The notes below the pieces were generated by a model, which saw only the letters and a program-made list of their open reading frames with translations, was not told the origin of the DNA and ran no database searches. Shown piece after piece: positions 8,001 to 50,446 of a stretch of 64,000 nucleotides of DNA (positions within the stretch are counted from its first letter, which is position 1; each line of letters starts with the position of its first letter). A program made the translations under genes and the position numbers. Where the stretch lies: contig CAZGHS010000005.1 of assembly GCA_964525495.1 (NCBI GenBank), positions 12,599 to 76,598 on the forward strand, given 5' to 3'. The DNA comes from an uncultured Gammaproteobacteria bacterium (GTDB taxonomy: Bacteria > Patescibacteriota > Microgenomatia > JALYQM01).

Positions 8001-11000
8001 CGGACGCATTAGATATTTCAACAACAGGCGCGCTTTCAGGTGCAACGGGCTTATCGTCCTCTGGAAATCTGACCTTCACAGGTTCTGGAACATATACGCT
8101 CGCAAACATTGCGTCTGGTGCGTCTTTCTCAAACAATCGACTTGTCCAAACAACAAGTGCAGGTGTGCTTTCAACCATCCCAGATGGAAGCACTCCAAAC
8201 CAGGTACTAATCACCGACAGCAATGGCAATTTCTCTTGGACAAGCGCAGCTGGGGTTATTGCTCCAGACTCACTAGATTTCACAGAATTCAGTGACTCGA
8301 TGTCTCTCGATGCTTCAACTTCAATTGCTTTTGACGCTGCAGAAGTACTTACGCTAAACGCAGCAACTGTGGATACCACCACCACAGGCGGTGTACTAGA
8401 CATGAATATTGATGCAGGGAACGCAGCAGTGATTGGATTAAATGTAGACTTTGCGCAATCCAACGGTGCAACAGCAGCAACAGACGCAGTCGCACAAAGG
8501 CTTACATTATCCGCAAATGATGCTGACGGCGACATGTTTGGATTACAAATAGTAGGAGCTGCAACAACGAACGCAGCTGCAGGAAGTTACGAGGCAGCCC
8601 TCTCAATAGACAATGTTGAAGATACTGTGGCATCCATGACCGACGCAATCCTCATAACATCATCAGGAGTAAATAATGGTGTAACAGACGCCATCGATAT
8701 ATCCGCAGCAAACATTAACAACGCTATTAATGCAGGTGCAAATTTCATACTTATGGATGGAATTCGCATATTCGAAGGTACAACAGGCACCATAACAATC
8801 GAAGATACTGCAGGTAACGACCTCATGACTATCGCTGATGGCGGAACAGTCGGTAATGCATCCATAACAGGCACGCTTGCTGTGTTAGGATCTACGATTG
8901 GACTCGACAGTGATGCTGATGCAGATAATTTGATAGGAACAGCAGCAGCAGGTGGCGCTGCAGCTTCAAATCTTTATTGGGGGAATAGGCTTCTCTGTGA
9001 TGCCACACAAGTAAACTGTGGATGGTCCGCAGTAGGTGGCAATGCTCCATGGACGACAACATCAAATGTGGTAAATCTTAATACTGCAACAGATAACGTA
9101 ACTGTAGGATCTGCAACAAATTTAGCAAAACTCGCAGTTGATGGCGACACAGACGAAATACAGTTACTAATCCAAGGCAACGGAACACAGACGGCAAATC
9201 TTGTAGTATTCGAAACATCAGCAGGGACGGATCAACTGACGCTATCAAACGCGGGTGCCTTAGCAATCGAAGGTGCAATTTCCGACATAAGTGGGACAGT
9301 TTTAGAAGTTAACGACGATCTGAAAGTAACAGGCAACGATATTATCGACTCAGGTGACGTAACACGAATATCATTAGGAGCAACCACAACACTTACTAAT
9401 TCCGCTACGACACTATCTGGAACAACGACCCTTACGGCTACCTCATTGGCCACGTTTTCTACAGCTGCAACACTCGACATGACATCTACAACAACACTTA
9501 ACTGTACTGACTGTGTTAATTTCGACGACATGTCGGACTCCCTTGCACTCGACGCGTCAACCTCAATAGCCTTCGATGCCGCTGAAGTATTAACACTCGA
9601 TGCAGCATCAACAGATACTACTACTACTGGTGGCGTGCTAGACTTCAACATTGACGCAGGCAATGCGGCTGTCCTAGGTTTGAATATCGATTTTGCTCAG
9701 TCCAACGGTGCAACAGCAGCAACAGACGCAGTAGCACAAAGGCTAACCTTATCAGCAAATGACGCAGACGGAGACATGTTTGGTTTACAAATCATCGGCG
9801 CCGCAACAGCAAATGCTGCAGCTGGTTCTTACGAAGCTGCAATATCGATAGATAATGCTGAAGACACTGCAGCTTCCATGACAGATGCAATTTTAATCAC
9901 CTCATCAGGCGTAAATAATGGTGTAACCGACGCGATAGATGTCTCTGCTGCAAACATAAACAACGCAATCAACGTAGGTGCAAACTTCATATCAATGGAC
10001 GGGGTGAGAATGTTTGAAGGTTCAACGGGAACACTTACTTTTGAAGACACGTCCGGAAATGATTTAATGACGATTGTTGATAATGGCACAAATGGAAATG
10101 TAACGATCACAAACAATCTCTCAGTAACAGGCACAATCACTGCTAACACAGATGAAACAATCAATGGACTAGATATCAACGCAGGTGCAATATCTGACGC
10201 AACGAGCCTAGCTATCTCTTCAGCAGCAAGCACGGCAATTGCACTAACCAGAAGTTCGGCTGGACAATGGATGTCTTTCAATGACGGCACAGATGCCTGG
10301 GGTTTATATAACACAGCTGGCTCGCCGGAAGGAGTGCTCGCAGCCAATACAGGTGCACTTTCAATGGATACCACTAACGGCACTTTGTATGTCAAAACTG
10401 ACGATGGTGACAATACTGGCTGGGTAAATCTCGCAACCGGAGGAAGTTCTCCATGGCAAACAACATCTAACGTTACCAATCAAGTCACTTCAACAGACGA
10501 TGTGACAGTCGGCTCAGCTGTTGATTTAGCAAAACTGGGTGTCGATGGAGATTCAGACGAAATTCAATTCTTAGTACAAGGCAACGGAACACAAACAGCT
10601 GGCTTACTAGTATTAGAAACCTCAGCAGGAACAGATCAATTTACGGTATCTAATGCTGGTGCAGTGGGTATCGAAGGAGCAATCTCAGATATTACCGGAA
10701 CAGTTGTTGAAGTAAATGATGATTTGAAAGTAACAGGCAACGACATCATTGATTCAGGTGACACAACACGTATTTCACTTGGCGCAACAACAACCTTAAC
10801 AAATACAACAACAACGCTATCAGGCACAACAACCTTGACTGCATCATCTTTAGCAACTCTGACAACTGCGGCAACGCTTAGTATGGCTTCAACAACAACA
10901 TTAAACTGTGGTGATTGTATCGACTTTGATGATATGAAAGACTCGCTATCAATAGATGCTGCAACAGATATTAACCTTGGAGCTAACGCGCTTACAATCG

Positions 11001-12943
11001 ATATGGATTCGACGGGCGATTTCTCAATTAGAGATGGTACAACAGATATTATGGCATTCACAGATAGTGGTGCTGTAAGTATCACTCCAACATCCGGACA
11101 GAATCTCACCGTAACAGCGGCAGGTGCAGGAACAGTAAATGTTACAACTGCAACAGGATCACAAACATACACATCTTCAGTTGTATCAGGAACAACAACA
11201 ACTTCTGCATTTATATTCGATGCAACTGCAATTACAACAGGTACAGGTATGTACGTAACAACGGATAGTATTACGCAAGGAAATCTAATGGATATTTCAA
11301 CAACGGGCAATACGCTAACATCAGGAAATGTATTAAATCTAAGTTCCACATCAACAGCATTAACCTCAGGAAGACTAGCATCACTTGATTGGTCTCCAGG
11401 ATCAACAACAACTGCTACGGGCGATTTATTCCGTATTAATATCGGCTCAAACGGAAACGCAGCAAATCTATTCAATGTAACAGATAATACGTCGTCATTA
11501 TTCAGTGTGGCAGAAAATGGTATTACTTCAGCTGTACCACACTCATTCACAGCTGCTGGAGATGTTGCTATTGCCTACGACCTACAATTCACCAATCAAA
11601 CAGCATCATACATCAAATCCAATGCACCACTATACATAGAAGCAGGCGAAGCTTTTGAAAGCAACGATATTACAATTCGCTCATTCAATAGTGGTGGAAT
11701 AATTCTTGAAGGATCAGGTAACACATCTGTAAAGGGATCAGATGTAGTCATTTCAAGCGATGGAACATTGGATTCAACAAATATCGGCGGAACAGGTTTA
11801 TTGGCGTACGGAGCAATCTGCGCTGATGATTCTCTCGACAATGCTGACGATTGTATTGATGCTGCACGTTCAGCTGGAACTGTATACGGTATTGCTTCAA
11901 GTTTCGCAATTGACGACGTTGCTGAAAACTTCCCAACGCTTGACTCTTCTATCGAAGCTGCAGATATAGTTGCACTCGACTATCAAGAACCACTAGATAC
12001 TCCAGTAGCAAGCGACGCTGCACAGGCATATGAAACAGAGTTCGTAAAGAAAGCCACTTTATCTGATAATCAAAAGGTACTTGGTGCAATCTCCGGCAAA
12101 CCAGGTGTGTTACTCGGAGGATGGAGTCAAAAGCGTGATCCAAGATCTGTACAAGAAGTAGCCGTAGGTTTATCTGGGCGTATACCGATAAAAGTGACCT
12201 CAGTAAATGGCCCAATTGAGCCAGGAGATTATATTGCGTTGTCAAACACGCCAGGTGTCGGAGCAAAAGCAAATGATAAGGGGTATGTAGTTGGTATGGC
12301 GCTTGGTCGATACGATAACGCCGATTCATCACACATAGGCTCGGTCTTAGTTTTCTTACAAAGAATGTATTACAATCCAATCACATCTGAATTAGCAGGA
12401 GAAAACGAGTTAACTCCTGAGTCATTATCTTCTACAACAATGCCAAACCTCTTAGTTTCAGGAACTGCAGAATTTAGCGACGTAAAAGTAACAGGAGAGA
12501 TATTAGCTGGTAACCTCTCGATCACAGGTCTTGCAGCAGGGGGCGGAGCAGATGTGTCAACTCTAACTGGCCCATTACGAATACAACCAGACGCAGGAAA
12601 CAATGTTGAAATAATGGGCGGCAAAGTAATTATCGATACAGAGGGAAATATCTATGCGGATGAAGGAACCTTAACCGCAAAAACAATTTCCGCCGAAAAG
12701 ATCAATGTATCTGGACAGGGGAGCGATGCCTCCATTGGTTCAGCAACAATTGCAGCATGGCAAACACAAGTTACAATAGATTCATCCGCTGTAACAGAAA
12801 ACTCACAAATATTTGTAACTGCTAAATCCCGTTCACGACAACCACTCGCTGTAACAGCAACGGTTTCAGGTGAATCATTTACAGTTGAGATACCAGAGGA
12901 ACAAGAAGAAGAACTCGTATTCAGCTGGTGGATAATAAACTAA
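2063..12943 (+). CDS. Giant (3,626 aa) Thr/Gly/Ser/Ala-rich repetitive surface protein, fibre/adhesin-like, with an N-terminal signal anchor
   Basis: Single uninterrupted ORF. N-terminal hydrophobic segment ILVTVLVVLIGVPVTVSVGVAGL. Extreme T/G/S/A/D/N bias with many nested internal repeats, including recurring GNGGTG and TFTG/SGAKTF motifs. Non-repetitive roughly 390-aa C-terminal domain. Reverse-strand ORFs across it are low-complexity artefacts. Confidence 0.85.
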   Translation: MKMKKLHIGILVTVLVVLIGVPVTVSVGVAGLNKVNKLASSKTAKSTTGLEAVPLNGQVLQAATEATGASVINFNAPAIFNEPTRFNADIDASDNNLTLGEGELTASNVIYSIQGINGITVTGGQNAVISFTGLTGILAGDGIELTTGSTPTLTNTGVTSFQGESGAITLDEGDGIEISGTEISNDDPGTAQDIFKIIAVSGQNDIEADENNDTLTFVAGSNITLTTNDSGDALTISSAASAVSGWEDDGTDVRLSTITDNVGIGTATPGSKLHVVGTTTISSTLTLGGSMVLGSDTVNDLTGDGLAVSGSALTVNLTTSGSAGSTSSNSGLEVSTAGLTMIKGCADGELLKWDNTANLWECATDDGGTTGIINVQEGDVTVSASAGTLDFLGNDFALTESPAGEINVAIDYTNSNITRTNQNETITGTWTFSNVITANGGLTIAGGQSLTLGSDAVTDLTGTGITVSGGSLQTTLGTSVDLASAEVTGTLPVGNGGTGATSYTAGSVVFSNGTILTQDNTNLFWDDTNNRLGIGDNSPNSALTIGASDAFQVNSSGAVAAATGISSSGNLNFTGSGTYTLANIASGASFSGSRIVGVSQTGVLTTVADGSDDQVLTTDGAGVYTWKDIGSILEPTNAFINNGNSFAASATLGTNDTNSLALETDGTTRITILATGNTGIGDASPASLFTVGSGDLFQVNSSGAIAAATGVTSSGTITFTGLGSGSGSTLCIDGSNQVVTCAVSPGDITAVGDITSGAAFDGTQGNTLYFEGTSIDANEIALSGADATVDRTITLPDLSGTVALLENSQTFSGAKTFTAAMTIDGNLAINSSSTTIGDSGSDSLTINATILVGSPLVFEGSTADGNETTLTVTDPTADRTITIPDLTGTVALLENAQTFSGAKTFSAGLIVSASGASITGGIDNNSGGITEAGAISGVTTLSASSTVTLTGLGSGTGSYLCLDGSNNVVTCSGTTGDITAVGDVTSGAAFTQTAGNDGNNIYFEGSSADGNEIALTAADPGSDLTVTLPAITGTLASLAGSQTFTGAKTFNATTTFDGAIAANTDIDLTFAAAENMTLTNSSASTDQLSLSITGVTTDGVDAFAIAYTQADDADSTDTNSAVNIALTSSSGDADALYGLQFADFTSGSATETALRFGTGFDNILEIEGSTADANETFLTFTDPTSDRTVTFPDASGTVCLTSGNCAGVGGVGTITAVGDITSGAAFTQTAGNDGNNIYFEGSSADGNEIALTAADPGSDLTVTLPAITGTLASLAGTQTFTGAKTFNATTTFDGAIAANTDIDLTFAAAENMTLTNTSASSDQLSLSVTGVTTDGVDAFAIAYTQADDADSTDTNSAINIALTSSSGDADVFYGLQFADFTAGTATETAFRIGTGFDNVLEIEGSTADGNETSVAFADPTADRTVTFPDSSGTVCLSSGNCAGGAGGSKWTDSGTLTYLTDSTDSITIGSTSELAKLAVDGDADEIQLLIQGNGTQTSSLLVLETSAGTDQLTVSNAGALGLEGAISDITGATVEINDDLQVTGNDILDSGSTSRVTLGSNTILTNTTTTLSGTTTLTASSLATLTTAATLDMTATTTLNCTDCINFDDLSDSLSLDAGTTIALGTNTLTLNASGTGDVIFQDNGTPVLTFNDSGNTVWSLPAGNNIQIDGATADSTTTTGVVDVDVDSATDNNIGMSIDYQDTNTGASQTKYALRTDITIDTNGTGNDTVYGNYISFTQDDAAATAYGLYVTGEDRNYFSGNVGIGDSSPTAALTVGSGDAFQVNSSGAVAAATGITSSGTITFSGLGTGVVQSNGSGVLSSGALDLAGGASYITGVLPLGNGGTGFSTYTQGDLLYASAANTLSKLAVGGNTTVLTVAGGVPTWATATVAFNNISGGTNTTAAMVVGTGSSLNFTGSGTINASTLLGSTWASPGTIGSTAPNTGAFTSLTTSGNTSLTTGAGNDTTIGNATGTFELVSDALDISTTGALSGATGLSSSGNLTFTGSGTYTLANIASGASFSNNRLVQTTSAGVLSTIPDGSTPNQVLITDSNGNFSWTSAAGVIAPDSLDFTEFSDSMSLDASTSIAFDAAEVLTLNAATVDTTTTGGVLDMNIDAGNAAVIGLNVDFAQSNGATAATDAVAQRLTLSANDADGDMFGLQIVGAATTNAAAGSYEAALSIDNVEDTVASMTDAILITSSGVNNGVTDAIDISAANINNAINAGANFILMDGIRIFEGTTGTITIEDTAGNDLMTIADGGTVGNASITGTLAVLGSTIGLDSDADADNLIGTAAAGGAAASNLYWGNRLLCDATQVNCGWSAVGGNAPWTTTSNVVNLNTATDNVTVGSATNLAKLAVDGDTDEIQLLIQGNGTQTANLVVFETSAGTDQLTLSNAGALAIEGAISDISGTVLEVNDDLKVTGNDIIDSGDVTRISLGATTTLTNSATTLSGTTTLTATSLATFSTAATLDMTSTTTLNCTDCVNFDDMSDSLALDASTSIAFDAAEVLTLDAASTDTTTTGGVLDFNIDAGNAAVLGLNIDFAQSNGATAATDAVAQRLTLSANDADGDMFGLQIIGAATANAAAGSYEAAISIDNAEDTAASMTDAILITSSGVNNGVTDAIDVSAANINNAINVGANFISMDGVRMFEGSTGTLTFEDTSGNDLMTIVDNGTNGNVTITNNLSVTGTITANTDETINGLDINAGAISDATSLAISSAASTAIALTRSSAGQWMSFNDGTDAWGLYNTAGSPEGVLAANTGALSMDTTNGTLYVKTDDGDNTGWVNLATGGSSPWQTTSNVTNQVTSTDDVTVGSAVDLAKLGVDGDSDEIQFLVQGNGTQTAGLLVLETSAGTDQFTVSNAGAVGIEGAISDITGTVVEVNDDLKVTGNDIIDSGDTTRISLGATTTLTNTTTTLSGTTTLTASSLATLTTAATLSMASTTTLNCGDCIDFDDMKDSLSIDAATDINLGANALTIDMDSTGDFSIRDGTTDIMAFTDSGAVSITPTSGQNLTVTAAGAGTVNVTTATGSQTYTSSVVSGTTTTSAFIFDATAITTGTGMYVTTDSITQGNLMDISTTGNTLTSGNVLNLSSTSTALTSGRLASLDWSPGSTTTATGDLFRINIGSNGNAANLFNVTDNTSSLFSVAENGITSAVPHSFTAAGDVAIAYDLQFTNQTASYIKSNAPLYIEAGEAFESNDITIRSFNSGGIILEGSGNTSVKGSDVVISSDGTLDSTNIGGTGLLAYGAICADDSLDNADDCIDAARSAGTVYGIASSFAIDDVAENFPTLDSSIEAADIVALDYQEPLDTPVASDAAQAYETEFVKKATLSDNQKVLGAISGKPGVLLGGWSQKRDPRSVQEVAVGLSGRIPIKVTSVNGPIEPGDYIALSNTPGVGAKANDKGYVVGMALGRYDNADSSHIGSVLVFLQRMYYNPITSELAGENELTPESLSSTTMPNLLVSGTAEFSDVKVTGEILAGNLSITGLAAGGGADVSTLTGPLRIQPDAGNNVEIMGGKVIIDTEGNIYADEGTLTAKTISAEKINVSGQGSDASIGSATIAAWQTQVTIDSSAVTENSQIFVTAKSRSRQPLAVTATVSGESFTVEIPEEQEEELVFSWWIIN
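4994..6409 (+). repeat. Near-identical tandem direct repeat (2 x about 708 nt = 2 x 236 aa) inside the giant gene; a more diverged third copy lies upstream (about 4301-4993)
   Basis: Protein segments starting ITAVGDVTSGAAFTQTAGNDGNNIYFEGSSADGNEIALTAADPGSDLTVTLPAITG... (from nt 4994) and ITAVGDITSGAAFTQTAGNDGNNIYFEGSSADGNEIALTAADPGSDLTVTLPAITG... (from nt 5702) are roughly 95% identical over 236 aa. The nucleotide copies are also highly similar. Confidence 0.85.
6482..10970 (+). repeat. Dispersed intragenic module repeats in the giant gene: module M1 (LAKLAVDGD..DEIQLLIQGNGTQT...NCTDC.NFDD) at about 6482, 9122 and 10526; module M2 (SIAFDAAEVLTL...GVNNGVTDAID...ITGTL) at about 8317 and 9568
   Basis: Translated segments of 150-190 aa recur with roughly 70-90% identity at these offsets. 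Spacing between M1 copies is 2640 nt and 1404 nt. Confidence 0.8.
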
Positions 12944-17813: not shown

Positions 17814-20800
17814 ATGAACAAACACGTCAAAAAACTCGCATACACATTTTCGTCACTACTTTTATTAAGCAGTTTAATCGGTAGTGATAATTCTATTTTT
17901 GATCCAAAATCCGCATTCGCAAACCCGCCAGTCAACTTTACAAACGAAATTCTTACGACAAATCTTACAGAACCCACAGGATTAACATTCACACCTGACG
18001 GTCGAATGTTATTTATAGAGCGAGCAGGAACGATTAGAGTAGTTGCTGCGGGTGGAACAACACCTAACACAACACCATTTCACCAAATAACAAACATCAA
18101 CACGAGCGACGGAGAAAGAGGATTAGTGGGAATTGCGGTAGATCCAAATTTCACTTCAAACAATTATTATTATGTTTTTTACACAGCAAACTCACCTTTG
18201 CGAGATCGAGTATCTCGATTCACCGCAAATGGGGATACCACAGTATCCGGCAGTGAAGTAGTAATTTGGCAGGAACCAACACAAGCCGGCCTTTGGCATC
18301 ATGGTGGAACAATTGCATTTGGTCCAGACGGAAAACTATATATCTCAACAGGAGATGGATTTGATTCTGGTTCAGGATCAAATCATGTTTCACAAAGACT
18401 AGATAGCGTAAGAGGAAAAATACTTCGCATTAATTCCGACGGAACAATTCCTTCGGACAATCCATTTAATGACGGTGGAGGATCAAACTTTGACGAAATA
18501 TGGGCGCGCGGTTTACGCAATCCATTTAGATTCTCATTTGATTCTACAAACGGCACTATGTATATAGGTGATGTAGGTGGAAACTCAACGGTAAGCTCGA
18601 TAGAAGAAGTAAACAGGGGTGCCGTTGGAGCTAATTTCGGTTGGCCAATTTGCGAAGGAACCTGTTCCACTTCGGGTATGACCAATCCTATCTACACATA
18701 TAATCACGGAGGACGAGATGCGTCAGTAACAGGTGGTTTTGTGTATCGAGGTTCGCTATTCCCCACAGAATATCAGGGAACATATTTTTATGGTGACTAC
18801 GTACGCAATTGGGTAAGATATCTCACATTTAATACCAATGGAACAGTGAGTGGATCAACCAACTTCGAACCAACAAACGGAACAGAAGACGGACCATATG
18901 GTGAGATCGTAGATATAAAAATGGGACCAGACGGCAATATATATTACGTAGATTACGGTACAACCTGGGAAGGTCAAAGCAATCCAGGAAAAATCAGAAG
19001 AATAAAATATACTGGAACAACAAATCAGCCACCAATTATCACTTCAGCGACTGCAAATCCTTCAAACGGGCCAGGTCCAATACTAGTAACAGATTTTTCA
19101 GTTGCTGCATCCGATCCAGAAAATAATACATTAAGCTATTTGTGGAATTTTGGAGACGGAAACACTTCTTCACAGCAGAGCCCAAGCCATACATATACAG
19201 AGCCAGGAGAATACATAGCTCGAGTAACGGTTTCAGACGGTACAAATCAAACTCTTTCAAATCCCATTAATATTACTGTCGGTAATAGACCAGTAGTATC
19301 AATTGCCTCGCCGACAATAAATCAATCGTTTAGAGGTGGAGATAGTATTTCATTTAGTGGGTCAGCAACTGATCCAGATGAGGACCTTCCGTTATCAGCG
19401 TATTCTTGGAGAGTAATATTCAACCACGAATCACACACGCATCCAGCCGCCGGCCCTATCGAAAACACGACGTCAGGTTCCTACACAATTCCTACAACAG
19501 GTCACGATTTTTCTGGGAACACAAGTTATGACATTTTACTTACGGTAACAGACAGTACGGGATTACAGGGAACCGCTTCTGTCAGAATTAATCCTGAAAA
19601 AGTTAATCTTACATTCAACACTTCACCAACAGGACTCGGCCTTAACTTCGACGAGCAGACTAATATAACAACATCATTTGTGAGAGATACTTTAATCAAC
19701 TTTCAACACACTGTCGAAGCCCCAGTAACACAGCTGCTCGCAGGTAATACGTATACATTCCAATCATGGTCAGATAGTGGTGCAGCTCAGCATATAATCA
19801 CTGCCCCTGCTACAAGTCAAACATACACTGCAAACTATCAGTTAACAGCAAGTCCTACCCCGACTGCTGCACCTACGGCTACACCAGTGCCAACGGCAAC
19901 ACCAACTGGAACCCCATCGCCAGCTCCTACTGCGATACCCACCACAGGTACAAGTCTACAATTTGATGGGGGAGACATGGTATCTGGTACGAACGTTCCT
20001 TTGCTTACGCAGTTTACCTATGAAGCATGGATAAAACGAACAGCTGACAACGGGACTTACCAAACATTTCTATCTGACGCAAATACAAACTATAACGCAG
20101 CCATGGTCACGCTGTTTGTAGACGGAGGAAATAGTGATTGCGGAAGCTCACCAACTGATCAGATCGCATATTTTCAATTGCAATCAGGGGGCAGTTCGAC
20201 TCAATGTTCAGGGGTAACGGCCACGCTTAATCAGTGGTACCACGTAGCTGTAACGCGAGATGCAGCAGGAACACGCAGGGTATTTATCGACGGAACACTA
20301 AGATCGACAAATACAAGTACAGTAGCTCCAGCAGATAGCACAGGTCTCATGACATTAGGGCGAGCTGGTTCGAGCAGTGACGAGTACTTCACTGGACGGA
20401 TTGATGATGTACGGGTTTCAAATACAGCCAGATACACTACAAACTTTACACCATCAGCTATCAGTGGGTCAGATGCAAACACTATCTTCGCATGGAATAT
20501 CAACGAAGGATCAGGACAGACACTTGCTGACCTATCAAGCAACAATCGTAACGGAACACTAGGCAGTAACACAAATGTTGAAGCAACTGATCCTGTTTGG
20601 TCAACAGATAGCCCCTTGGGCGGAGCAGCTCCTAGCCCAACACCAACAGGCACTCCAGCACCGACGGCAACCCCTATTTCTACAGCAACTCCTGCTCCAA
20701 CTGCGACGCCAATAATAACTCCAACACCGATACCAACGGCAGCACCAACCGGAACCCCTATACCTACAGCTACACCAATTCCTACTCCTACCGCCACTCC

Positions 20801-21575
20801 GGCAATAACACCTACCCCAGTTCCCACAGCAACACCTACGGCTGTCCCAACAGCGACACCAATTCCTACCTCGACCCCGACATCAACTCCAGTTCCTACG
20901 GGAACAACGCTTAACTTTGCCGGGGACGATGTAGTACAGACAGTAAATATTCCTTTAGCAACACAATATACATTTGAAGTATGGGTAAAGCGTTCGGCTG
21001 ACAGTGGAGGATACGAAACATTTGTATCCGATGCAAACAGCGCATACAATCGCGCGATGGTCACGCTATTTATTGACGGAGGAAACAATGACTGTACAGG
21101 GGTATCTGACCAATTCGCGTTTTATGAGTCAAGAGCGAACGGATCGAGCACTCAGTGTTCGGGAGTAACAGCTTCATTGAATCAGTGGTTCCATATTGCC
21201 GTAACACGAGATGCTGCAGGCACTCGACGATTCTTTGTTGACGGCACTTTGCGGACAACACAGACAGGAACGGCAACGCCAACTGACAGTGCTGGAGTAC
21301 TTACTTTCGGTCGTGCTGGTGATTCTAGTTCGGAATATTTCAGTGGAAGAATAGACGACGTGCGTGTAGTAAGCAACGCAGTCTATACTACAAACTTCAC
21401 AAGGCCAACAGCACCGCTCACTACCGTGACAGGAACAATTGGACTCTGGAACATTACAGCAGGAAGTGGACAAACTGTAGCAGACACTTCTGGCAACAAT
21501 CGCAATGGACGATTAGGTACTTCAAATTCCGCTGATTCACGTGATCCAAGTTGGGTGTCAGATAATCCATATTAA
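17814..21575 (+). CDS. Secreted multidomain protein: PQQ-dependent sugar dehydrogenase-like (GSDH/YliI-type) beta-propeller + 2 PKD-like domains + Thr/Pro linkers + 2 LamG domains
   Basis: Signal peptide. The GSDH-family motifs (LT.P.G..F.PDGR, GLVGIA.DPNF, WHHGG.I.FGPDGKLYI..GDG, LRGKILRIN.DG.IP.DNPF, GLRNPFRF) are all present. PKD signature WNFGDGNTS...HTY.EPGEY...TVSDG. Two LamG units with W.KR.AD, W.H.AVTRD and GRIDDVRV. Confidence 0.8.
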   Translation: MNKHVKKLAYTFSSLLLLSSLIGSDNSIFDPKSAFANPPVNFTNEILTTNLTEPTGLTFTPDGRMLFIERAGTIRVVAAGGTTPNTTPFHQITNINTSDGERGLVGIAVDPNFTSNNYYYVFYTANSPLRDRVSRFTANGDTTVSGSEVVIWQEPTQAGLWHHGGTIAFGPDGKLYISTGDGFDSGSGSNHVSQRLDSVRGKILRINSDGTIPSDNPFNDGGGSNFDEIWARGLRNPFRFSFDSTNGTMYIGDVGGNSTVSSIEEVNRGAVGANFGWPICEGTCSTSGMTNPIYTYNHGGRDASVTGGFVYRGSLFPTEYQGTYFYGDYVRNWVRYLTFNTNGTVSGSTNFEPTNGTEDGPYGEIVDIKMGPDGNIYYVDYGTTWEGQSNPGKIRRIKYTGTTNQPPIITSATANPSNGPGPILVTDFSVAASDPENNTLSYLWNFGDGNTSSQQSPSHTYTEPGEYIARVTVSDGTNQTLSNPINITVGNRPVVSIASPTINQSFRGGDSISFSGSATDPDEDLPLSAYSWRVIFNHESHTHPAAGPIENTTSGSYTIPTTGHDFSGNTSYDILLTVTDSTGLQGTASVRINPEKVNLTFNTSPTGLGLNFDEQTNITTSFVRDTLINFQHTVEAPVTQLLAGNTYTFQSWSDSGAAQHIITAPATSQTYTANYQLTASPTPTAAPTATPVPTATPTGTPSPAPTAIPTTGTSLQFDGGDMVSGTNVPLLTQFTYEAWIKRTADNGTYQTFLSDANTNYNAAMVTLFVDGGNSDCGSSPTDQIAYFQLQSGGSSTQCSGVTATLNQWYHVAVTRDAAGTRRVFIDGTLRSTNTSTVAPADSTGLMTLGRAGSSSDEYFTGRIDDVRVSNTARYTTNFTPSAISGSDANTIFAWNINEGSGQTLADLSSNNRNGTLGSNTNVEATDPVWSTDSPLGGAAPSPTPTGTPAPTATPISTATPAPTATPIITPTPIPTAAPTGTPIPTATPIPTPTATPAITPTPVPTATPTAVPTATPIPTSTPTSTPVPTGTTLNFAGDDVVQTVNIPLATQYTFEVWVKRSADSGGYETFVSDANSAYNRAMVTLFIDGGNNDCTGVSDQFAFYESRANGSSTQCSGVTASLNQWFHIAVTRDAAGTRRFFVDGTLRTTQTGTATPTDSAGVLTFGRAGDSSSEYFSGRIDDVRVVSNAVYTTNFTRPTAPLTTVTGTIGLWNITAGSGQTVADTSGNNRNGRLGTSNSADSRDPSWVSDNPY
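19950..21572 (+). repeat. Intragenic duplication of a LamG domain (about 19950-20610 and 20905-21572) separated by a Thr/Pro/Ala linker (about 20625-20900)
   Basis: Both copies share TQ[FY]T[FY]E.W.KR.AD.G.Y.TF.SDAN..YN.AMVTLF.DGGN.DC...STQCSGVTA.LNQW[YF]H.AVTRDAAGTRR.F.DGTLR. The linker is almost pure PT/AT repeats (TPAPTATPISTATPAPTATPIITPTPIPTAAPTGTPIPTATPIPTPTATP...). Confidence 0.8.
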
Positions 21576-21598
21576 AATATAATAAAAAAGAGGTGCAT

Positions 21599-24500
21599 AT
21601 GTTACTAGGTGAAAGATATTTTAAATTAGGCACACTATCTCTTTTCATAGTGCTCATCTTAGGGATGAGTTTTTTTTATACATCGGCTCATGCTGATTCA
21701 AACATATATCAGATAACTGCCAGCGCAAATGATGTGAATCAAGACGGTAATACACTTGATATTACAAGCGCAAACATGTGGTTAGGTACTGGTGCTAGTA
21801 CGTCAAGTTCTTATACTGGATTGCGGTTTACAAACATAAATATACCTAAAGGAGCAACAATCAACTCGGCAAAGCTTCAGGTCTTTTCACCTTCATCAAG
21901 TTGGATATCGATGACTTTTGATTTCGCAGCTGAAGCAGCAGATAACAGTGCAATATTCTCAACAACAAGCAAACCTTCACAACGAACAGTAACAAACACA
22001 AAAATACGGCACTCAAGCAATAACTCATGGTCAGCAAATACGAATTATACGCTTGACGAAATAAACACAGTGGTACAAGAAGTCATCAACAGGCCGGGAT
22101 GGACCAGTGGTAACAGCCTATCACTTGTCCTAAAAGGAGCAGGAAGTTCCTATGGAAGAAAAAGTATCCGTGCATACAACGGTACTCCAGCCAACGCGCC
22201 AAAACTTTTAGTAACATTTTCCGTAGCTGGTACACCGACCCCTGCACCAACGAGCACGCCGACCGCAACACCCACAGCAACTCCAGTACCAACGACTACC
22301 CCTACTGTTGCACCAACAGCTACCCCCACTATATCTCCTACAGCAACATCGACGCCTATACCAACTGCAACTCCCACCTCGCAACCAAGTAATGTTGCCT
22401 ATTACAATATAAATACTTCTACCTCAACTAGCGCAGGATACGATGCCGTTTCGTGGTCACAAGGATACCCCATCACTGTAGATAAATTTGGAAAATATAT
22501 AGTACCTATACAACGTCATGGATTCAGCAGCGAAAACTTTGCAGTCAGTAATGATGCCGGAGCAACATGGATAGAGCTAGACGGCTCAGGTATCCTCAAT
22601 AGATCATCTATTGCATACGATAGTATAAATGACACGCTCCAAGTAGTAACAACTGCAAACGCAGTGGCTTATAGTAAATATTCAATAGTTCGTGATGGCA
22701 ATAACAACATTACGAGTCTAGCACTTGATGGAATAATGAATATAGAAACTGGGGCAGGTTGTACTGCAATGGATATTAGAAATCCTATAGCACTATGGAA
22801 AGATGACGGAGCAAACGGACAGGTGGTTGCGTTCTGGTCAGTTAGTAAAACATGTTCAGGATCAAGCATAGTAGAAACACGTGCCGCTATGCGAACACTT
22901 TCAAACTCGGCCGCAGATAGAACAGCATCAAATTGGAAAGCATTAAACGGAGTCTCAAGTGCACCAGGATCTGTCGGTCCTGCGCTTGTTGCATACAATA
23001 AAATATATGGAATTAATACAGCGTATGACCGTCCATTTCAACACTCCGCAATGATCCAAGGCGGAGGCGGAGTTCATAGCAATGATATTTACTATTTCAA
23101 CATAGATCAAAACGATACTCACGGATTCCAAAGGTTAACGTGGAATCCTGCATTAAATGATTGGTCAGGTTCATGGACATCGAGGGCAGTATTTGGAGGA
23201 AATGTAGGAGATAATCTTGGATATAATTTAAAGAAAGAGCTATTAAGTAAACCTGTTTATGCTTCAAATAGCAACAGAGTATATGTAGGAATATCTAGAT
23301 GGTTAACAGGCGGGGCTGGTGACTCTCAATCACTATTCTATGTAGATGACAGTGATATCGTTATCGAAGCAGGAAACGTATACTCTGCTAATGGTACCGC
23401 GTTCCTCTATCCGACATTTGATCTTATGTACGATCAAGTAACAGGTTTAGTAAATTTCTTCTATCTCACCACAGGAGTAAATCAGAACGGTCATGTATAT
23501 TACAAATCATATGACGGTTCGAACTTCTCTACAGCAAAACCATTTTTTACAGCAGCCGGACAAACGGTAGATATTCCAATCGTCTATCAGTCGAGAATAG
23601 ATAATAAAGCAGTCTTGTTCTTCAGAAAAAACAAAACAAGTGATCCAAACACACCTCCTCATGAAATATTTTTTGGCTACGCAAAGCTTGATACTCCTGT
23701 TCCAAACCCAACGCCTACAGCCACTCCTACAGTCGCCCCGACCGCAACTCCAGTACCCACGTCCACTCCTACTGTCGCGCCAACAGCTACGCCCACACCG
23801 ACTAGCACCCCAACACCTACAGCAACACCAACAACCGCTCCAACCAACCCGCCTGGGGAAACAGTAAAAGGGTCATTTGAAATAGGACAGGGAGGCTCCG
23901 ATGTGATTCCGCATCAAATAGTTCGCACTCAAGATGACAAAGTATATACGTTTGGATATGCTGGCCAATACCAACCAGTGCTCAAGGCATATTGGACAAA
24001 TGGTACAGGTATACCAACACAGACTAGTCATTTCAGTGGTTCAACACAAGTTACCGACAGCTCAAACTTAATCTCTGTAGATGCAGTCTATGATGGAAGC
24101 GCTATTATCCACGTCATAACAAACACACAGGGTGGAATTACCAAAGATTATCCATTTGACACAACAACAAATACTTTCAGGTCACCTCAAACTGTTGCTA
24201 CGAACACTAAAACAGTCAGTGGAGATTACGTAGGATCAAGCGGAGTATCAGCAATGTTCGACACGGCTGGAGATCTGCACATCGCATATTGGACGAATGA
24301 TAACTATGTCAAATACGGAAAATATCAGTATAGCAACAATACAAACACGCTAACGCAAGTTGAAGGTCCAACCACAGTAGATGCCGACGTAAACGCAAAC
24401 CATCCAAGTCTCGCAGTGTCTCCACTAGACAACTCAATTTCAGTAGCTTGGATATCACAGAGTGGAACACCTCGCATTTTATACCGCGAAAAGACAGTAA

Positions 24501-25723
24501 ACGGGTGGAATCCTATTCAACAAGTAAGTACGTCTCGTCCGTGGACAAGCAACAACTTTGGTGTGAACATCGACCAAGGCCCAACAATAATAATAGATAC
24601 AAATGGTAAAAAATACCTTACATACATCGAAGATTTTGATAATACAGGCGATTATGGAAGTATTCATTATGTAACAAATGCATCGGGATCCTGGATAGAC
24701 ACGGAGCTATCAAATACATATAGCCACGATCCAGTATTAGCATTAGCTCAAAACGGTGACCAATATCTTATTGGTCACGGGCATCCTAACAACACATCAT
24801 GTAAATTAATGACGGTAATGTGTACAAAGAAACGAAATACAAACGGAGTATGGGATTCATCACTCGAGTTTGCTACACCAACAGGATCAGATTCATACGA
24901 TTCAAGCCCAAGTATTAAATGGTCTGTAGTAGGATTTAATCGTCCTGAAACTATAGAATTCGTCTTCCCAAGGATAATAAATAATAACTACAACACATCA
25001 AGTCTTATGTACGGATACATTAATTACAATACTCCAACACCGACACCAACTGCCGCTCCGACCGCAACACCAGTTCCAACTCCTACTGCTACTCCGGCCA
25101 TAACACCAACCCCTGTACCAACGATCACTCCAACTTCCGCACCAGTTACAATAACCTATACAGTTCCATCAAATGATAGAGACGCATGGTCGGGTAATGC
25201 GCACACTGGCAATCCAAATAACGAAGTAAGAGTAAACGGTTATAACAACACAAATGAACCGTACTTATTCGTCAGTAATGACAGTGATGAAGAATCTGCG
25301 GGGATGCAGTTCCAAATCGATGTGCCGCAAAATGCTACTATTCAAAACGCGTTTTTGACAGTCACTGCTGGTTCATTCCAAAGTCCTAGTGCAACGGGGG
25401 GAATGGGAATTCAGATCTATGATGTCGGCAATACAACGGCCTTTCAAAATGGGTTTTTGGGAGATCTTATAAATCATCACCCTCGTTATGGAACAAGTAT
25501 CATGTGGTCAGATCCAACAACGTGGACAAATGGGTCTATAAAAAGCTCGCCAAACATCAACGCACTTGTCCAGCACATAGTGAATAGGACTGATTATGCA
25601 CAAAATAACTTTATAGGGTTTGTGATTGACGAAGGAACCTTGCAAAGCGGAAAATATTACGGATGGGACGACTACTTTGGCGGAGATCCTGCAAGGTTAA
25701 CCGTGACATATACAACAAATTAA
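21599..25723 (+). CDS. Secreted 1.37k-aa surface protein with a BNR/Asp-box-containing domain, three Thr/Pro linkers and similar N- and C-terminal capping domains
   Basis: Signal peptide. Asp-box SNDAGATW. TP linkers at about 22225-22385, 23700-23850 and 25035-25140. The N-terminal (about 21690-22200) and C-terminal (about 25150-25720) domains share a pattern (..NEP.LF / GLRF.NI.IPKGATI..A.L.V compared with QFQIDVPQNATIQNAFLTV). A GTG at 21593 is an alternative start; the ATG at 21599 is preferred given the upstream AGAGG. Confidence 0.75.
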   Translation: MLLGERYFKLGTLSLFIVLILGMSFFYTSAHADSNIYQITASANDVNQDGNTLDITSANMWLGTGASTSSSYTGLRFTNINIPKGATINSAKLQVFSPSSSWISMTFDFAAEAADNSAIFSTTSKPSQRTVTNTKIRHSSNNSWSANTNYTLDEINTVVQEVINRPGWTSGNSLSLVLKGAGSSYGRKSIRAYNGTPANAPKLLVTFSVAGTPTPAPTSTPTATPTATPVPTTTPTVAPTATPTISPTATSTPIPTATPTSQPSNVAYYNINTSTSTSAGYDAVSWSQGYPITVDKFGKYIVPIQRHGFSSENFAVSNDAGATWIELDGSGILNRSSIAYDSINDTLQVVTTANAVAYSKYSIVRDGNNNITSLALDGIMNIETGAGCTAMDIRNPIALWKDDGANGQVVAFWSVSKTCSGSSIVETRAAMRTLSNSAADRTASNWKALNGVSSAPGSVGPALVAYNKIYGINTAYDRPFQHSAMIQGGGGVHSNDIYYFNIDQNDTHGFQRLTWNPALNDWSGSWTSRAVFGGNVGDNLGYNLKKELLSKPVYASNSNRVYVGISRWLTGGAGDSQSLFYVDDSDIVIEAGNVYSANGTAFLYPTFDLMYDQVTGLVNFFYLTTGVNQNGHVYYKSYDGSNFSTAKPFFTAAGQTVDIPIVYQSRIDNKAVLFFRKNKTSDPNTPPHEIFFGYAKLDTPVPNPTPTATPTVAPTATPVPTSTPTVAPTATPTPTSTPTPTATPTTAPTNPPGETVKGSFEIGQGGSDVIPHQIVRTQDDKVYTFGYAGQYQPVLKAYWTNGTGIPTQTSHFSGSTQVTDSSNLISVDAVYDGSAIIHVITNTQGGITKDYPFDTTTNTFRSPQTVATNTKTVSGDYVGSSGVSAMFDTAGDLHIAYWTNDNYVKYGKYQYSNNTNTLTQVEGPTTVDADVNANHPSLAVSPLDNSISVAWISQSGTPRILYREKTVNGWNPIQQVSTSRPWTSNNFGVNIDQGPTIIIDTNGKKYLTYIEDFDNTGDYGSIHYVTNASGSWIDTELSNTYSHDPVLALAQNGDQYLIGHGHPNNTSCKLMTVMCTKKRNTNGVWDSSLEFATPTGSDSYDSSPSIKWSVVGFNRPETIEFVFPRIINNNYNTSSLMYGYINYNTPTPTPTAAPTATPVPTPTATPAITPTPVPTITPTSAPVTITYTVPSNDRDAWSGNAHTGNPNNEVRVNGYNNTNEPYLFVSNDSDEESAGMQFQIDVPQNATIQNAFLTVTAGSFQSPSATGGMGIQIYDVGNTTAFQNGFLGDLINHHPRYGTSIMWSDPTTWTNGSIKSSPNINALVQHIVNRTDYAQNNFIGFVIDEGTLQSGKYYGWDDYFGGDPARLTVTYTTN

Positions 25724-28866: not shown

Positions 28867-30493
28867 ATGAAGAAATATCTCATTGTCATACTCTTTCTTG
28901 CAGCTATATTTCGCATCCCATTTCTAGATACTCACATGCCAGCCTTATATGGTGACGAGATATCAATCGGATATAATGCTTATTCAATCTTAACAACAGG
29001 CAAAGATGAGTTTGGGAAATTTCTTCCAATACAGTTTGAATCATGGGGCGACCAAAAAAATCCGGTCTACATCTATATTGTTTCTCTTTTCCAGATTGTG
29101 TTTAAGCTATTGGAGTGTGCGATTACCTTCAGCTCTTGCCGGCATTGGCGCGGTATATCTTACGTATCTATTATCCAAAACATTACTAAGTCTTAAATCA
29201 GATAAAGATAAAAACGTCGAAGTAACATCACTTATAGCAGCACTATTACTCGCCTGTAGCCCATGGCACATACATATTAGTAGGGGAGGGTATGAGGCAA
29301 ACCTCGCGCTCGCTTTAGGATTACTTGGAATAATATATCTTATAAATTTTATTGCTAACCCCTCTTCTAAAGCTTTTTATATAAGTTTGGGAGCATTCAC
29401 TCTTAGCATGTACACCTACTACACCACCAAAATGTTTATTCCTTTACTTATTATAGTTCTATTACTTTGGGGATGGGTGTATCTACAAAAATCAAAAACA
29501 TATGTCGTTCATTCACTAAAATATCTCGCGTTATTTTTTATAGTATGTCTTCCTATTGGGTATCTCGGTTTATTCGACAAGGGACAAGCACGGTTCCAGA
29601 CGATAAACATTTTTGCAAATCCTCAAGTACAGGAACGCGTTATCGCAGCACGAGCAAAATATCCCGCAGATTCATTCACTGTGTCATTACTTGAGAACAA
29701 ATACACATACTATGTAAGAGACTTCTTGGAGTATTATTTTGATAATCTTTCAGGACAATTCTGGTATGTATCGGGCGACAGCTCGCTACGATACACAGTA
29801 GGTAATCACGGAATGTTTTATCTTATCGAAGTCCCATTTCTTCTGATAGGTATTATCCTCATGTTCAAAAACAATAAAAAGGTCGCAGTACTACTTTTAG
29901 CCTGGCTATTGCTCGCACCACTACCTACGTCGCTTGTAGGAAAAGCCTATGGCCTGCGCTCCTTAGCAATGCTTCCTATACCGATGATTTTTGTAGCATA
30001 TGGTCTCGCGAATTCGCTCAACGCAGTCAGAAAATACAAATATCCTGCTATTGTGTCGGTTGCTGTTATCTACTGCATCTCAGTCATAAACTGGTCAGCA
30101 CGATACATAGTGCTTTATCCAACGTATGGACAATACTGGTATGACAGTATGCAGAAGGAAATGATTGATTATGCAAAAGCAAACGAAGACGACTATGATA
30201 ACATCATTCTAACGCGATTCTATGGTAAAACAGAAATGTATTATGCGTTCTATGAAAAAGTGGAGCCACAACAATACCAAGAGCTAAGTCAGAAAAAAAC
30301 CGAAATAGCAAATACACCTATGGTAAAATTTGGTAAATACTATTTCGGAGACATCGCAACAGCAGGTAAAGATTTTTCGCAATTACAACTCCCCCCACGC
30401 ACACTTGTAGTAGCTTCTCCGCAATTTGCATTTGGAACAGAAACGATCAACGCCAAAGACGATAAACGAATTCTATTCAAAGTAGTAAAATAG
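28867..30493 (+). pseudogene. GT39/PMT_2 (ArnT/PMT-like) GT-C glycosyltransferase paralog interrupted by a frameshift near 29105-29115 (two ORFs, 28867-29196 and 29006-30493, in different frames)
   Basis: The first ORF matches paralog N-termini (YGDEISIGYNAYSI...KNPVYIYIVSLFQIVFKLL) and the second continues the alignment (WSVRLPSALAGIGAVYLTYLLSK compared with WTTRFPSAFFGTLSIIVTYYL in the 30501 paralog). A 1-nt indel is required to join them. This could be true gene decay or a sequencing or assembly error. Confidence 0.6.
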
Positions 30494-30500
30494 ACAGATT

Positions 30501-32249: not shown

Positions 32250-32258
32250 AGGATTTCT

Positions 32259-33995: not shown

Positions 33996-34018
33996 GTAAA
34001 ACGGTATCCTATCGATAT

Positions 34019-34585: not shown

Positions 34586-34592
34586 AATCTAA

Positions 34593-35754: not shown

Positions 35755-35760
35755 ACAAGA

Positions 35761-36666: not shown

Positions 36667-36741
36667 ACCAACAACATTAATAGCAGTGATGAATAACCGA
36701 TTCTAAAAACCTATCGAGAGCAGTATAATAGCAAATACTGC

Positions 36742-37929: not shown

Positions 37930-37938
37930 AATTAAATT

Positions 37939-39456: not shown

Positions 39457-39459
39457 GAG

Positions 39460-42791: not shown

Positions 42792-42866
42792 ATTCCAAAT
42801 TCAGTATATCACTCAAAATATAGTATGCACGCCCACGATCCGGTATAATACCAAAAGAACAACAGC

Positions 42867-48479: not shown

Positions 48480-48483
48480 AACT

Positions 48484-49276: not shown

Positions 49277-50446
49277 TTATTTAGCAGGCACTAGTCTGTA
49301 AATCTTATCATCCTTATCCTTAACACTCCCACGTCCATCTCGATTACTTGACGAGAAATAAATATTGCCATCTGGTCCTGTCACAACGTCACGCACTCGT
49401 CCAACATCCACGCCTGCGAGTTTGTTATGCGACAATACGTTTGTTCCATCTGTATTCAACACTGCCCGGTAAATTCCTTGTCCGCGTAATGCACCATAAA
49501 AGAAATTATTCTCAAATTGAGGAAATACTTTTCCTGTATAAAAACTTCCAGATCCAGGAGCAATCGCAGGTGTATACAAAACTTGTGGATCCATCATGCC
49601 ATCTCGGCGTTTATCATGAGACACAACAGGCCAACCATAATTTGCAGCCCGCTCAATCATATTCACTTCGTCACCTCCGCCTGGTCCGTCACCTCCAGAA
49701 GGCCCGTGCTCAGTCTCCCACATAGTTTTCGTCACTGGATGCCAATCAATTCCTTGAGGATTACGATGACCATACGACCAGACATACGAATTAGGAAATG
49801 GATTATCGCTCGGAATCGACCCATCGCTATTCATACGCAATATTTTCCCAGCCAGCGAGGTTTTATCCTGTGCCAATTCTTTTTGAGACGCATCACCAGT
49901 AGTCATATATAGTTTTCCATCCGGTCCAAACTTCAGACGGCTCCCCGCATGAACTTGCGCTGCAGGCACGCCTTCAATCAAAGTTTTATCCACACGCAAT
50001 TTGTCACCTTCATCAACAGCCCGCACTACTCGATCAGCGCCACGTCCACTCGCATAGGTATACGCAATATACACATATTTATTTGAAGCATAATTCGGAT
50101 CCAAAGTCATTCCTAGTAATCCATCTTCAGACCGAGTCGAGACATCAAAGGTAATCATCGGCTCTTTACGCACAACACCTTTTTCTACTACTTTCACTGC
50201 ACCACTTCGTTCAGTTACCAAAACCCGATCCGCAGAAGTGAACACGATACTCCATGGTACAAACAAGGAATCTGCATACACCTCTACTTTGTATCCCACC
50301 GCAACAGGACTCTCTTCGCTCGTATTCGTAGGCGAAGTAGTTCCATTGGATGAATTCTGAGGTAATGCAGTAGATTGCTGAGAAGTACACGCAGTTAACA
50401 GGAGAACACTCAGTAAAATAACAGTCAAAGATGTAACTTTATGCAT
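49277..50446 (-). CDS. PQQ-dependent sugar dehydrogenase-like (glucose/sorbosone dehydrogenase, YliI-type beta-propeller) lipoprotein
   Basis: Lipobox LLTAC. GSDH family motifs (LGMTLDPNY, G.RLKFGPDGKLYMTTGD, GKILRMNSDGSIPSDNPF, ANYGWP). Confidence 0.75.
   Translation of the reverse strand: MHKVTSLTVILLSVLLLTACTSQQSTALPQNSSNGTTSPTNTSEESPVAVGYKVEVYADSLFVPWSIVFTSADRVLVTERSGAVKVVEKGVVRKEPMITFDVSTRSEDGLLGMTLDPNYASNKYVYIAYTYASGRGADRVVRAVDEGDKLRVDKTLIEGVPAAQVHAGSRLKFGPDGKLYMTTGDASQKELAQDKTSLAGKILRMNSDGSIPSDNPFPNSYVWSYGHRNPQGIDWHPVTKTMWETEHGPSGGDGPGGGDEVNMIERAANYGWPVVSHDKRRDGMMDPQVLYTPAIAPGSGSFYTGKVFPQFENNFFYGALRGQGIYRAVLNTDGTNVLSHNKLAGVDVGRVRDVVTGPDGNIYFSSSNRDGRGSVKDKDDKIYRLVPAK

Follow-up and report, generated by a model that had tools for sequence, protein, structure and literature searches.

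The six-bladed beta-propeller of the glucose/sorbosone dehydrogenase (GSDH) fold is found in soluble sugar dehydrogenases that use pyrroloquinoline quinone (PQQ). The closest described systems are the aldose sugar dehydrogenases (Asd) and the soluble glucose dehydrogenase (sGDH), namely PaeAsd of Pyrobaculum aerophilum (3A9G/3A9H), TTHA0570 of Thermus thermophilus (2ISM), YliI/Asd of Escherichia coli (2G8S) and sGDH of Acinetobacter calcoaceticus (1C9U). The fungal AA12 proteins (CcPDH, TrAA12) are secreted, combine a GSDH head with a carbohydrate-binding module (CBM) and lack some of the PQQ-binding residues of the bacterial enzymes (PMC6881789; PMC4133262). The vertebrate protein HHIP is extracellular and multi-domain, and it uses the GSDH fold without any PQQ function (PMC4133262). 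Finally, the pf08450-X173 di-domain of TERTU_3803, a secreted modular protein of Teredinibacter turnerae that was annotated as a PQQ glucose/sorbosone dehydrogenase, was found neither to bind PQQ nor to oxidise glucose (PMC10916295). Here, we focus on a gene that resembles each of these systems in part. It lies in a stretch of 64,000 nucleotides of DNA from an uncultured bacterium (contig CAZGHS010000005.1 of assembly GCA_964525495.1, positions 12,599 to 76,598 of the forward strand), which we call the window, and it encodes a GSDH-fold propeller fused to PKD, immunoglobulin-like (Ig-like) and LamG modules. The fused propeller descends from the PQQ sugar dehydrogenases, but its cofactor pocket has been rebuilt, as it has in the homologues compared here. 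The protein belongs to neither the HHIP nor the AA12 group and is an undescribed variant within the GSDH superfamily. The parts of the gene that matter most for the argument are the following.

17814..21575, plus strand: the whole gene, one uninterrupted open reading frame (ORF) for a secreted modular protein of 1253 residues
17814..17921, plus strand: Sec-type signal peptide, residues 1 to about 36 (MNKHVKK, then the hydrophobic LAYTFSSLLLLSSLIG, ending in AFA before NPP)
17925..19013, plus strand: six-bladed GSDH-fold beta-propeller, residues 38-400, with a remodelled cofactor pocket (Pfam, AlphaFold 2, Foldseek)
18297..18302, plus strand: His162-His163, of which His162 is the equivalent of the catalytic His144 of sGDH and His163 is specific to the family
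18516..18530, plus strand: R235-N236-P237-F238-R239, which keeps the R228/N229 pair of sGDH but has Phe for Gln231 and Arg for Gly232
18570..18578, plus strand: D253-V254-G255, at the site of the E-(H/Q)-G-P Ca/PQQ loop, shortened by loss of the Pro position (alignment)
18903..18911, plus strand: E364-I365-V366, in place of the PQQ-carboxylate-binding R-x-R (R406/R408 of sGDH; HMMER and YliI alignments)

The signal peptide and its cleavage site were read from the sequence by eye rather than with a prediction tool, and the position of the cleavage site is an estimate.

The assignment of the propeller to the GSDH fold is secure. Pfam places GSDH (PF07995) on residues 51-379 with an E value of 2e-54 and 185.5 bits, against a cut-off of 25, and the AlphaFold model of residues 36-401 reaches a mean predicted local distance difference test (pLDDT) of 93.4 and a predicted template-modelling score (pTM) of 0.93. 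When this model is compared with solved structures using Foldseek, 3A9G and 2ISM, both PQQ aldose sugar dehydrogenases, come out as the best matches in the PDB, with template-modelling (TM) scores of 0.81-0.82. The whole set formed by 3A9G, 2ISM, 3DAS, 7CDY, 2G8S and sGDH gives 0.77-0.82, so that the fold shared with the Asd/sGDH enzymes corresponds to a TM score of about 0.8, and the values fall to 0.68-0.76 for HHIP and to 0.60-0.67 for fungal AA12. In the Foldseek alignments, the fused propeller and the solved PQQ enzymes are no more than 21-26% identical. The catalytic His, the Arg-Asn pair and the EE/DE-x-N and NYGWP motifs are common to the soluble Asd/sGDH enzymes and to the fused propeller. 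In NCBIfam, the TIGR03606 model of the non_repeat_PQQ subfamily has a cut-off of 434.55 bits and the fused protein scores 92.7, but this model is tuned to sGDH-like proteins, so that a score below its cut-off excludes this narrow subfamily and nothing wider. The same holds for a second propeller encoded in the window, a stand-alone one that we describe below, which scores 170.3.

In order to read the pocket, 51 propellers of the fused type were aligned with 61 proteins of the stand-alone type and with sGDH, 3A9G, 2ISM and E. coli YliI. The YliI sequence was taken from NC_000913, and those of 3A9G and 2ISM were recovered from HMMER alignments. The sGDH reference reproduces the known residue numbering and is consistent with the HMMER alignment to 1C9U, and the conclusions drawn here are also supported by the tool-derived sequences of 3A9G, 2ISM and YliI. 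A second sample consisted of 71 diverse representatives, 33-66% identical, which had been found through the two Ig-like domains that follow the propeller and not through the propeller itself. In the first alignment, the sites of sGDH at which the two types part are the following.

H227: His in 61/61 of the stand-alone type; Leu in 48/51 of the fused type (L234 in the window protein)
Q231: Gln in 61/61 of the stand-alone type; Phe or Tyr in 50/51 of the fused type (F238)
Q246: His in 61/61 of the stand-alone type; Val in 46/51 of the fused type (V254)
P248: Pro in 61/61 of the stand-alone type; deleted in the fused type
K377: Arg or Lys in 54/61 of the stand-alone type; Val, Thr or Ala in the fused type (V330)
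R406: Arg in 61/61 of the stand-alone type; Asp or Glu in 48/51 of the fused type (E364)
R408: Arg in 61/61 of the stand-alone type; Val in 48/51 of the fused type (V366)

Both types share the catalytic general-base His and the Arg-Asn pair, which stands at the O5/O4 carbonyls of PQQ, without exception in this alignment (51/51 in the close relatives of the fused protein), and these residues hold equally well at greater distance, since His162 is kept in 69, R235 in 70 and N236 in all of the 71 diverse members. The rest of the pocket differs, including the sites of H227 and Q231, which flank the cofactor. The residue V254 is found in 46 of the 51 close and 70 of the 71 diverse proteins, next to a G255 that is invariant in the latter, whereas H-G-P occupies this loop, by which the Ca2+ bound to PQQ is held, in all 61 proteins of the stand-alone type. 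In the HMMER alignments to 1C9U and 2ISM, which are independent of the multi-sequence alignment, E364 and V366 again stand opposite the two arginines. In the diverse sample, neither Lys nor Arg at the K377 site, nor Arg at the R408 site, is among the five commonest residues, which account for 69 of the 71 sequences at each site. Likewise, at the R406 site, where the family has Asp, Glu, Ala or Asn, Arg is not one of the five commonest residues, which cover 54 of the 71 sequences. These losses concern the anchoring of the cofactor. Indeed, sGDH, Asd and fungal AA12 all have conserved equivalents of R228 and R406, the C-7 carboxyl of PQQ is bound by K377, and R408 of sGDH is the counterpart of Arg273 of AA12, which forms an ion pair with the C-2 carboxyl (CcPDH structure paper, PMC6881789). 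As far as the alignments tell, the fused-type family keeps no canonical ion-pair partner for the carboxylates of PQQ, and one of the sites is usually acidic.

The pocket has also acquired residues of its own. In the diverse sample, H298 (66/71) and D328 (71/71) are near-invariant; Y329 and V254 are likewise invariant pocket positions particular to the family, H163 is found in most members, as is D380, and arginines are found at R239 (58/71) and R301 (26/71). Thus, unlike Asd and sGDH, the fused propeller has no equivalents of K/R377, R406 and R408 and no H/Q-G-P loop, and it has H298, D328, Y329 and V254 instead. The canonical PQQ and Ca determinants have been lost and new invariant polar residues have been gained at PQQ-contact positions. 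Because the replacement residues are conserved across phyla, the pocket has been rebuilt under selection rather than having decayed. An earlier note on this DNA, made from the sequence and its ORFs, had credited the propeller with the full motif set of glucose/sorbosone dehydrogenases, which does not stand: only H162 and R235/N236 are kept, and Q231, Q246, P248, K377, R406 and R408 have become F, V, a deletion, V, E and V, respectively. The alignment to YliI and sGDH that the same note had called for as a check upholds the catalytic His and the Arg-Asn pair and goes against the carboxylate triad and the Ca/PQQ loop. To summarise the comparison with the PQQ enzymes, the fold, His144 and R228/N229 are found in the fused protein, but the basic triad K377/R406/R408 and the Ca/PQQ loop are both missing, so that on the evidence at hand this protein should not be classed among the PQQ-dependent dehydrogenases.

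The rebuilt pocket is not the property of a single gene. A search with the first 700 residues, which cover the conserved core made of the propeller, the PKD domain and two Ig-like domains, scored 8,000 candidates, of which 5,857 had E <= 1e-5. The top 120 matches are 48-64% identical to the query over 76-99% of its length. GSDH and PKD are found in all of them, and most carry additional C-terminal modules, including LamG, Big_7, SdrD_B, fn3, CarboxypepD_reg and others. They come from Chloroflexi, Actinomycetes and the candidate phyla radiation (CPR), with Anaerolineales, Woesebacteria, Actinomycetes, Kribbella and Desertimonas among the named examples, and the named ones are always labelled "PQQ-dependent sugar dehydrogenase" or "glucose/arabinose dehydrogenase". 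The conserved unit is thus propeller, PKD, Ig and Ig, the LamG pair being one of many interchangeable tails, and this layout is among the commonest GSDH architectures in metagenomes. The earlier note had regarded the fusion as an oddity, a layout atypical of such enzymes; this premise fails, given the thousands of homologues with the same layout. The fused family has so far been annotated only automatically, and the gene studied here is one more member of it, neither rare nor structurally exotic.

What follows the propeller can be described module by module.

19023..19280, plus strand: PKD domain, residues 404-489 (Pfam PKD_4, E 7.3e-21)
19284..19598, plus strand: Ig-like domain, Big_7/Big_9-like, residues 491-595 (weak Pfam matches, AlphaFold 2, Foldseek)
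19599..19853, plus strand: second beta-sandwich, InlB-B-repeat-like, residues 596-680, without a Pfam match (AlphaFold 2, Foldseek)
19854..19988, plus strand: Thr/Pro linker 1 (composition)
19989..20432, plus strand: LamG/concanavalin-A-like module 1, residues 726-873 (Pfam Laminin_G_3)
20613..20957, plus strand: Thr/Pro linker 2, about 115 residues, rich in Thr, Pro and Ala (T 37, P 30 and A 19 of 140 residues)
20964..21380, plus strand: LamG module 2, residues about 1051-1189 (Pfam E 4.8e-21)

The fusion of a propeller to PKD and LamG modules and to Thr/Pro linkers, as the earlier note had it, is borne out by Pfam, AlphaFold, Foldseek and the composition of the linkers, and its assignment of the propeller holds in searches with hidden Markov models. 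PKD_4 (PF18911, 74.5 bits) and Laminin_G_3 (PF13385, 147.5 bits in two copies, E 4e-43 overall) are both above their gathering thresholds. Between the PKD domain and the first linker, some 190 residues have only weak Pfam matches (Big_7/Big_9). The region from about residue 491 to 680 was modelled by AlphaFold, with 47 sequences as input, as two beta-sandwich domains with confidence (pLDDT 95.3), for which Foldseek gives the bacterial Ig domain 9KVU as the best solved match, with PKD-like, cadherin-like and adhesin-stalk domains next in rank. In one related protein, Flg_new_2 scores over the module that is equivalent to residues 596-680.

This pair of Ig-like domains travels widely. Used as a query, it retrieved 5,710 cluster representatives (396 at E <= 1e-30), and among the 139 representatives listed that were absent from the results of the core search, 96 carry a GSDH propeller. 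Others carry different heads. In the protein P0271, a Kelch head of the galactose-oxidase/glyoxal-oxidase type is mounted on a tail of PKD, an Ig domain with four His, a second Ig domain and two LamG modules, as in the window protein, and the Ig pair is also found in an NPCBM/PA14/LamG protein, in a PA14/fn3/LamG protein and in an esterase with a type IX secretion system (T9SS) tail. Since different heads use it, several of them enzymes, the PKD-Ig-Ig(-LamG) tail can be viewed as a generic extracellular stalk-and-anchor cassette. The first Ig-like domain (residues 491-595) has its own invariant alignment columns, W532, H538, H541, H543, P544 and H564, a cluster that may be a metal site. We considered this four-His domain as a redox partner of the propeller and rejected the idea, because the same cluster is kept behind galactose-oxidase-like, PA14, NPCBM and cadherin-like heads, and is thus not specific to the propeller.

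The two LamG modules of the window protein are 64% identical to each other (BLASTP). A 1587-residue protein encoded nearby also has LamG modules, and we rejected it as their source since the identity to those modules is merely 26-31%; the difference between these values indicates an internal duplication. Each module is followed by a W-N-I-x-x-G-S-G-Q-T-x-A-D...N-G-x-L-G motif, at about 20480-20600 and 21440-21572 (residues about 890-930 and 1208-1253). In LamG_3 proteins, such a W-N-I-x-x-G-S-G motif usually opens the domain, and its placement here hints at a permuted or strand-swapped arrangement.

How should such a protein work? The reading that we favour, tentatively and at a little short of an even chance, is that of a PQQ-independent, glycan-directed head on a modular stalk, probably catalytic and assisted by a metal. 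According to this reading, the protein would be exported by the Sec pathway and would act outside the cell, with the PKD and Ig-like domains forming a stalk and the LamG modules binding glycan and thereby anchoring the head at a carbohydrate surface. The fused head would be devoid of canonical PQQ binding and hydride transfer, and its axial pocket, presumably still the functional site, would bind and probably transform a sugar residue. The chemistry might then rely on His162 as a base and on a divalent cation held by acidic and His residues, which would take the place of PQQ; H162, H298, D328 and the D253/E264/E265 group resemble a metal or substrate site. Within this picture, a PQQ-independent enzyme is a serious possibility that we would not call probable, and a pure binder is rather unlikely. 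We also counted in favour of this reading that the same stalk cassette carries enzyme heads elsewhere. The T. turnerae precedent points in the same direction, away from PQQ, but is only suggestive, since TERTU_3803 differs in its propeller (SGL/pf08450), in its accessory domains (cytochromes c and CBMs) and in its host, a gammaproteobacterial degrader of lignocellulose. Extending the reading to the clade of more than 5,800 members, as a PQQ-independent and probably metal-dependent carbohydrate-active family with a His162/His298/Asp328 and Arg235/Asn236 site, in CPR maybe accompanied by a DNRLRE-like neighbour, is speculative, and we would put it forward with marked reserve.

Several points weigh against this favoured reading. 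The equivalents of H144, R228 and N229, which contact the quinone carbonyls and the substrate, are kept, as they would be in a quinone enzyme. The AA12 family was itself once thought to lack the bacterial PQQ-binding residues and yet is PQQ-dependent (PMC4133262). The arginines R239 and R301 could be relocated carboxylate binders. The geometry of the pocket, the metal site and any clash with PQQ are read from the alignment alone. No shared gene neighbourhood was found in three relatives with long contigs (GCA_964607285.1, Kribbella and Woesebacteria), and literature searches returned no characterised member of the propeller-PKD-Ig-Ig clade.

The strongest of the alternatives takes the fused protein for a genuine extracellular sugar dehydrogenase, dependent on PQQ or on another quinone that it would bind in a non-canonical way and, for PQQ, scavenge, and tethered by LamG to polysaccharide in the manner of the CBM1 of AA12. 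It would account for the invariance of H162, R235 and N236 and for the fact that the nearest solved structures are all PQQ enzymes. R239, conserved in most members, and the displacement in sequence of one PQQ-binding arginine of AA12 (PMC6881789; PMC4133262) make a non-canonical site conceivable, and the same genome encodes a canonical PQQ apo-enzyme, so that PQQ is presumably available to the cell. However, all three basic residues that bind the carboxylates are gone, with a mostly acidic R406 site, although the equivalent of R406 is conserved in sGDH, Asd and AA12 (PMC6881789), and the Ca/PQQ loop is shortened. In addition, new acidic residues (the invariant D328 and, in most members, D380) add negative charge to the pocket, a disadvantage for binding a cofactor that itself carries three negative charges. 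Nor does Pfam find a cytochrome or any other electron-acceptor domain in the fused protein. Its host belongs to the CPR, a group generally described as lacking respiratory chains. AA12 does not offer a close parallel either: it keeps the R406-equivalent Arg (Arg621 in CcPDH), includes a cytochrome b domain and has been proven to depend on PQQ, whereas E364 stands at this site in the fused protein and the structural similarity is low, which excludes membership in AA12. We thus regard a non-canonical quinone enzyme as unlikely.

The other alternative is a purely adhesive, lectin-like head as in HHIP. The propeller would then do no more than bind a ligand on the surface of a host or a substrate, and the whole protein would serve an episymbiotic CPR cell as an adhesin. 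The fold is shared with HHIP, which also keeps the His (PMC4133262), and the loss of PQQ-binding residues within the GSDH fold is indeed what we find in the fused propeller. PKD, Ig-like and LamG modules with Thr/Pro linkers are typical of surface binders, the gene lies within a block of five giant secreted proteins, and the GSDH-annotated T. turnerae domain lacks both PQQ binding and activity (PMC10916295). As a match, HHIP nonetheless scores lower than the enzymes (59 bits, against 115 for 2ISM), and it is of eukaryotic origin, with a protein as its ligand. With a family equally common in free-living Actinomycetes and Chloroflexi, an invariant His/Arg/Asn/His/Asp set that persists at 33-66% identity and resembles a catalytic or metal site more than a protein-binding surface, and bona fide enzyme heads on the same stalk cassette in other proteins, the adhesive head appears improbable.

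The favoured reading, that of a PQQ-independent head, has consequences for annotation. If PQQ chemistry has been lost, thousands of entries are wrongly labelled as PQQ-dependent sugar dehydrogenases, and a secreted family that is common in soil and aquatic Actinomycetes, Chloroflexi and CPR bacteria has an activity other than the one in its label. For the biology of CPR, the protein is one more part of a large and probably glycosylated repertoire of surface proteins. The earlier note had opposed a genuine surface oxidoreductase to a propeller co-opted as a lectin-like binder, and the answer differs between the two propeller genes of the window: the enzyme alternative suits the stand-alone gene, and the fused propeller is altered in the direction of co-option, of which a lectin-like function is just one outcome.

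The stand-alone gene is the following.

49277..50446, minus strand: stand-alone PQQ-type aldose sugar dehydrogenase, a lipoprotein of 389 residues (GSDH E 1.9e-93)

The lipobox LLTAC, with Cys20, was read from the sequence. Its best solved relative is the P. aerophilum enzyme 3A9G (E 1e-80), with 2ISM also matched (E 1e-67), and it keeps the H, HRNPQ, EHGP, LRG and GRVRD motifs, with all positions in agreement with the 61-sequence family and YliI. It is thus a straightforward member of Asd, a conventional PQQ-dependent aldose sugar dehydrogenase. The earlier note rightly saw a second, stand-alone copy that is a lipoprotein, but not the same propeller, since the two are merely 33-35% identical and must be assigned to different subfamilies. 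A canonical and a remodelled paralogue in one genome form a natural internal control pair. A Woesebacteria genome (locus L003, JBDTWD010000005.1) encodes a fused-type protein (P0025) and a stand-alone one (P0191), apparently on one contig of 110,014 base pairs. This pairing may recur in CPR bacteria.

The stand-alone enzyme would depend on PQQ imported from outside the cell. No lookalike of PqqB, C, D or E was found by Pfam among the window ORFs scanned (those of at least 120 residues, minus those merely overlapping a longer ORF on the other strand or in another frame), in agreement with the earlier note, which saw no PQQ biosynthesis genes in the window. PQQ apo-enzymes are well known in bacteria that do not produce the cofactor, and E. 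coli keeps YliI without making PQQ. Given this precedent and a CPR host, the lack of pqq genes in the window is to be expected and tells little. As for the host, the named best relatives of the F-ATPase beta subunit encoded at 339-1691 are found only in Patescibacteria/CPR (Levybacteria, Roizmanbacteria, Saccharimonadales and "Patescibacteria group"), at 55-63% identity, and those of the stand-alone dehydrogenase are mostly from Woesebacteria, WWE3 and Gracilibacteria. The relatives of these two proteins identify the window as CPR bacterial DNA. A metal-uptake operon of the ZnuA/ABC/ABC-3 type (46861-49275, plus strand) ends 1 nucleotide from the 3' end of the convergent stand-alone gene, with no evident functional link.

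Next to the fused gene, one neighbour stands out.

21593..25723, plus strand: downstream neighbour of 1376 residues, 17 nucleotides past the stop of the fused gene, with an N-terminal DNRLRE-like domain

This N-terminal domain of about 170 residues (residues 39-209) has no Pfam hit and matches DNRLRE_dom of NCBIfam at a sub-threshold E value of 1.3e-3; a weaker copy is found at the C-terminus of the same protein. In the propeller relatives P0014, P0025, P0029, P0009, P0012, P0031, P0069 and P0103, the domain is fused to the N- and/or C-terminus with 44-53% identity (BLASTP). Their covalent fusion in relatives connects the fused protein with the product of 21593-25723 by a Rosetta-stone link. 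Both genes are part of a block of five consecutive genes for giant secreted proteins (2063-28390), of which the first (2063-12943, plus strand, 3626 residues) has no match in Pfam or NCBIfam. Directly after this block, at 29006-44513, come six paralogous membrane glycosyltransferases of the PMT/PMT_2 type (GT39/GT83-like) and a GH8 gene (36742-37929). These PMT-type transferases would fit as candidates for the O-glycosylation of the Thr/Pro linkers. The G+C content is higher across 2-28 kb of the window, which may simply reflect Thr/Pro-rich coding rather than horizontal transfer.

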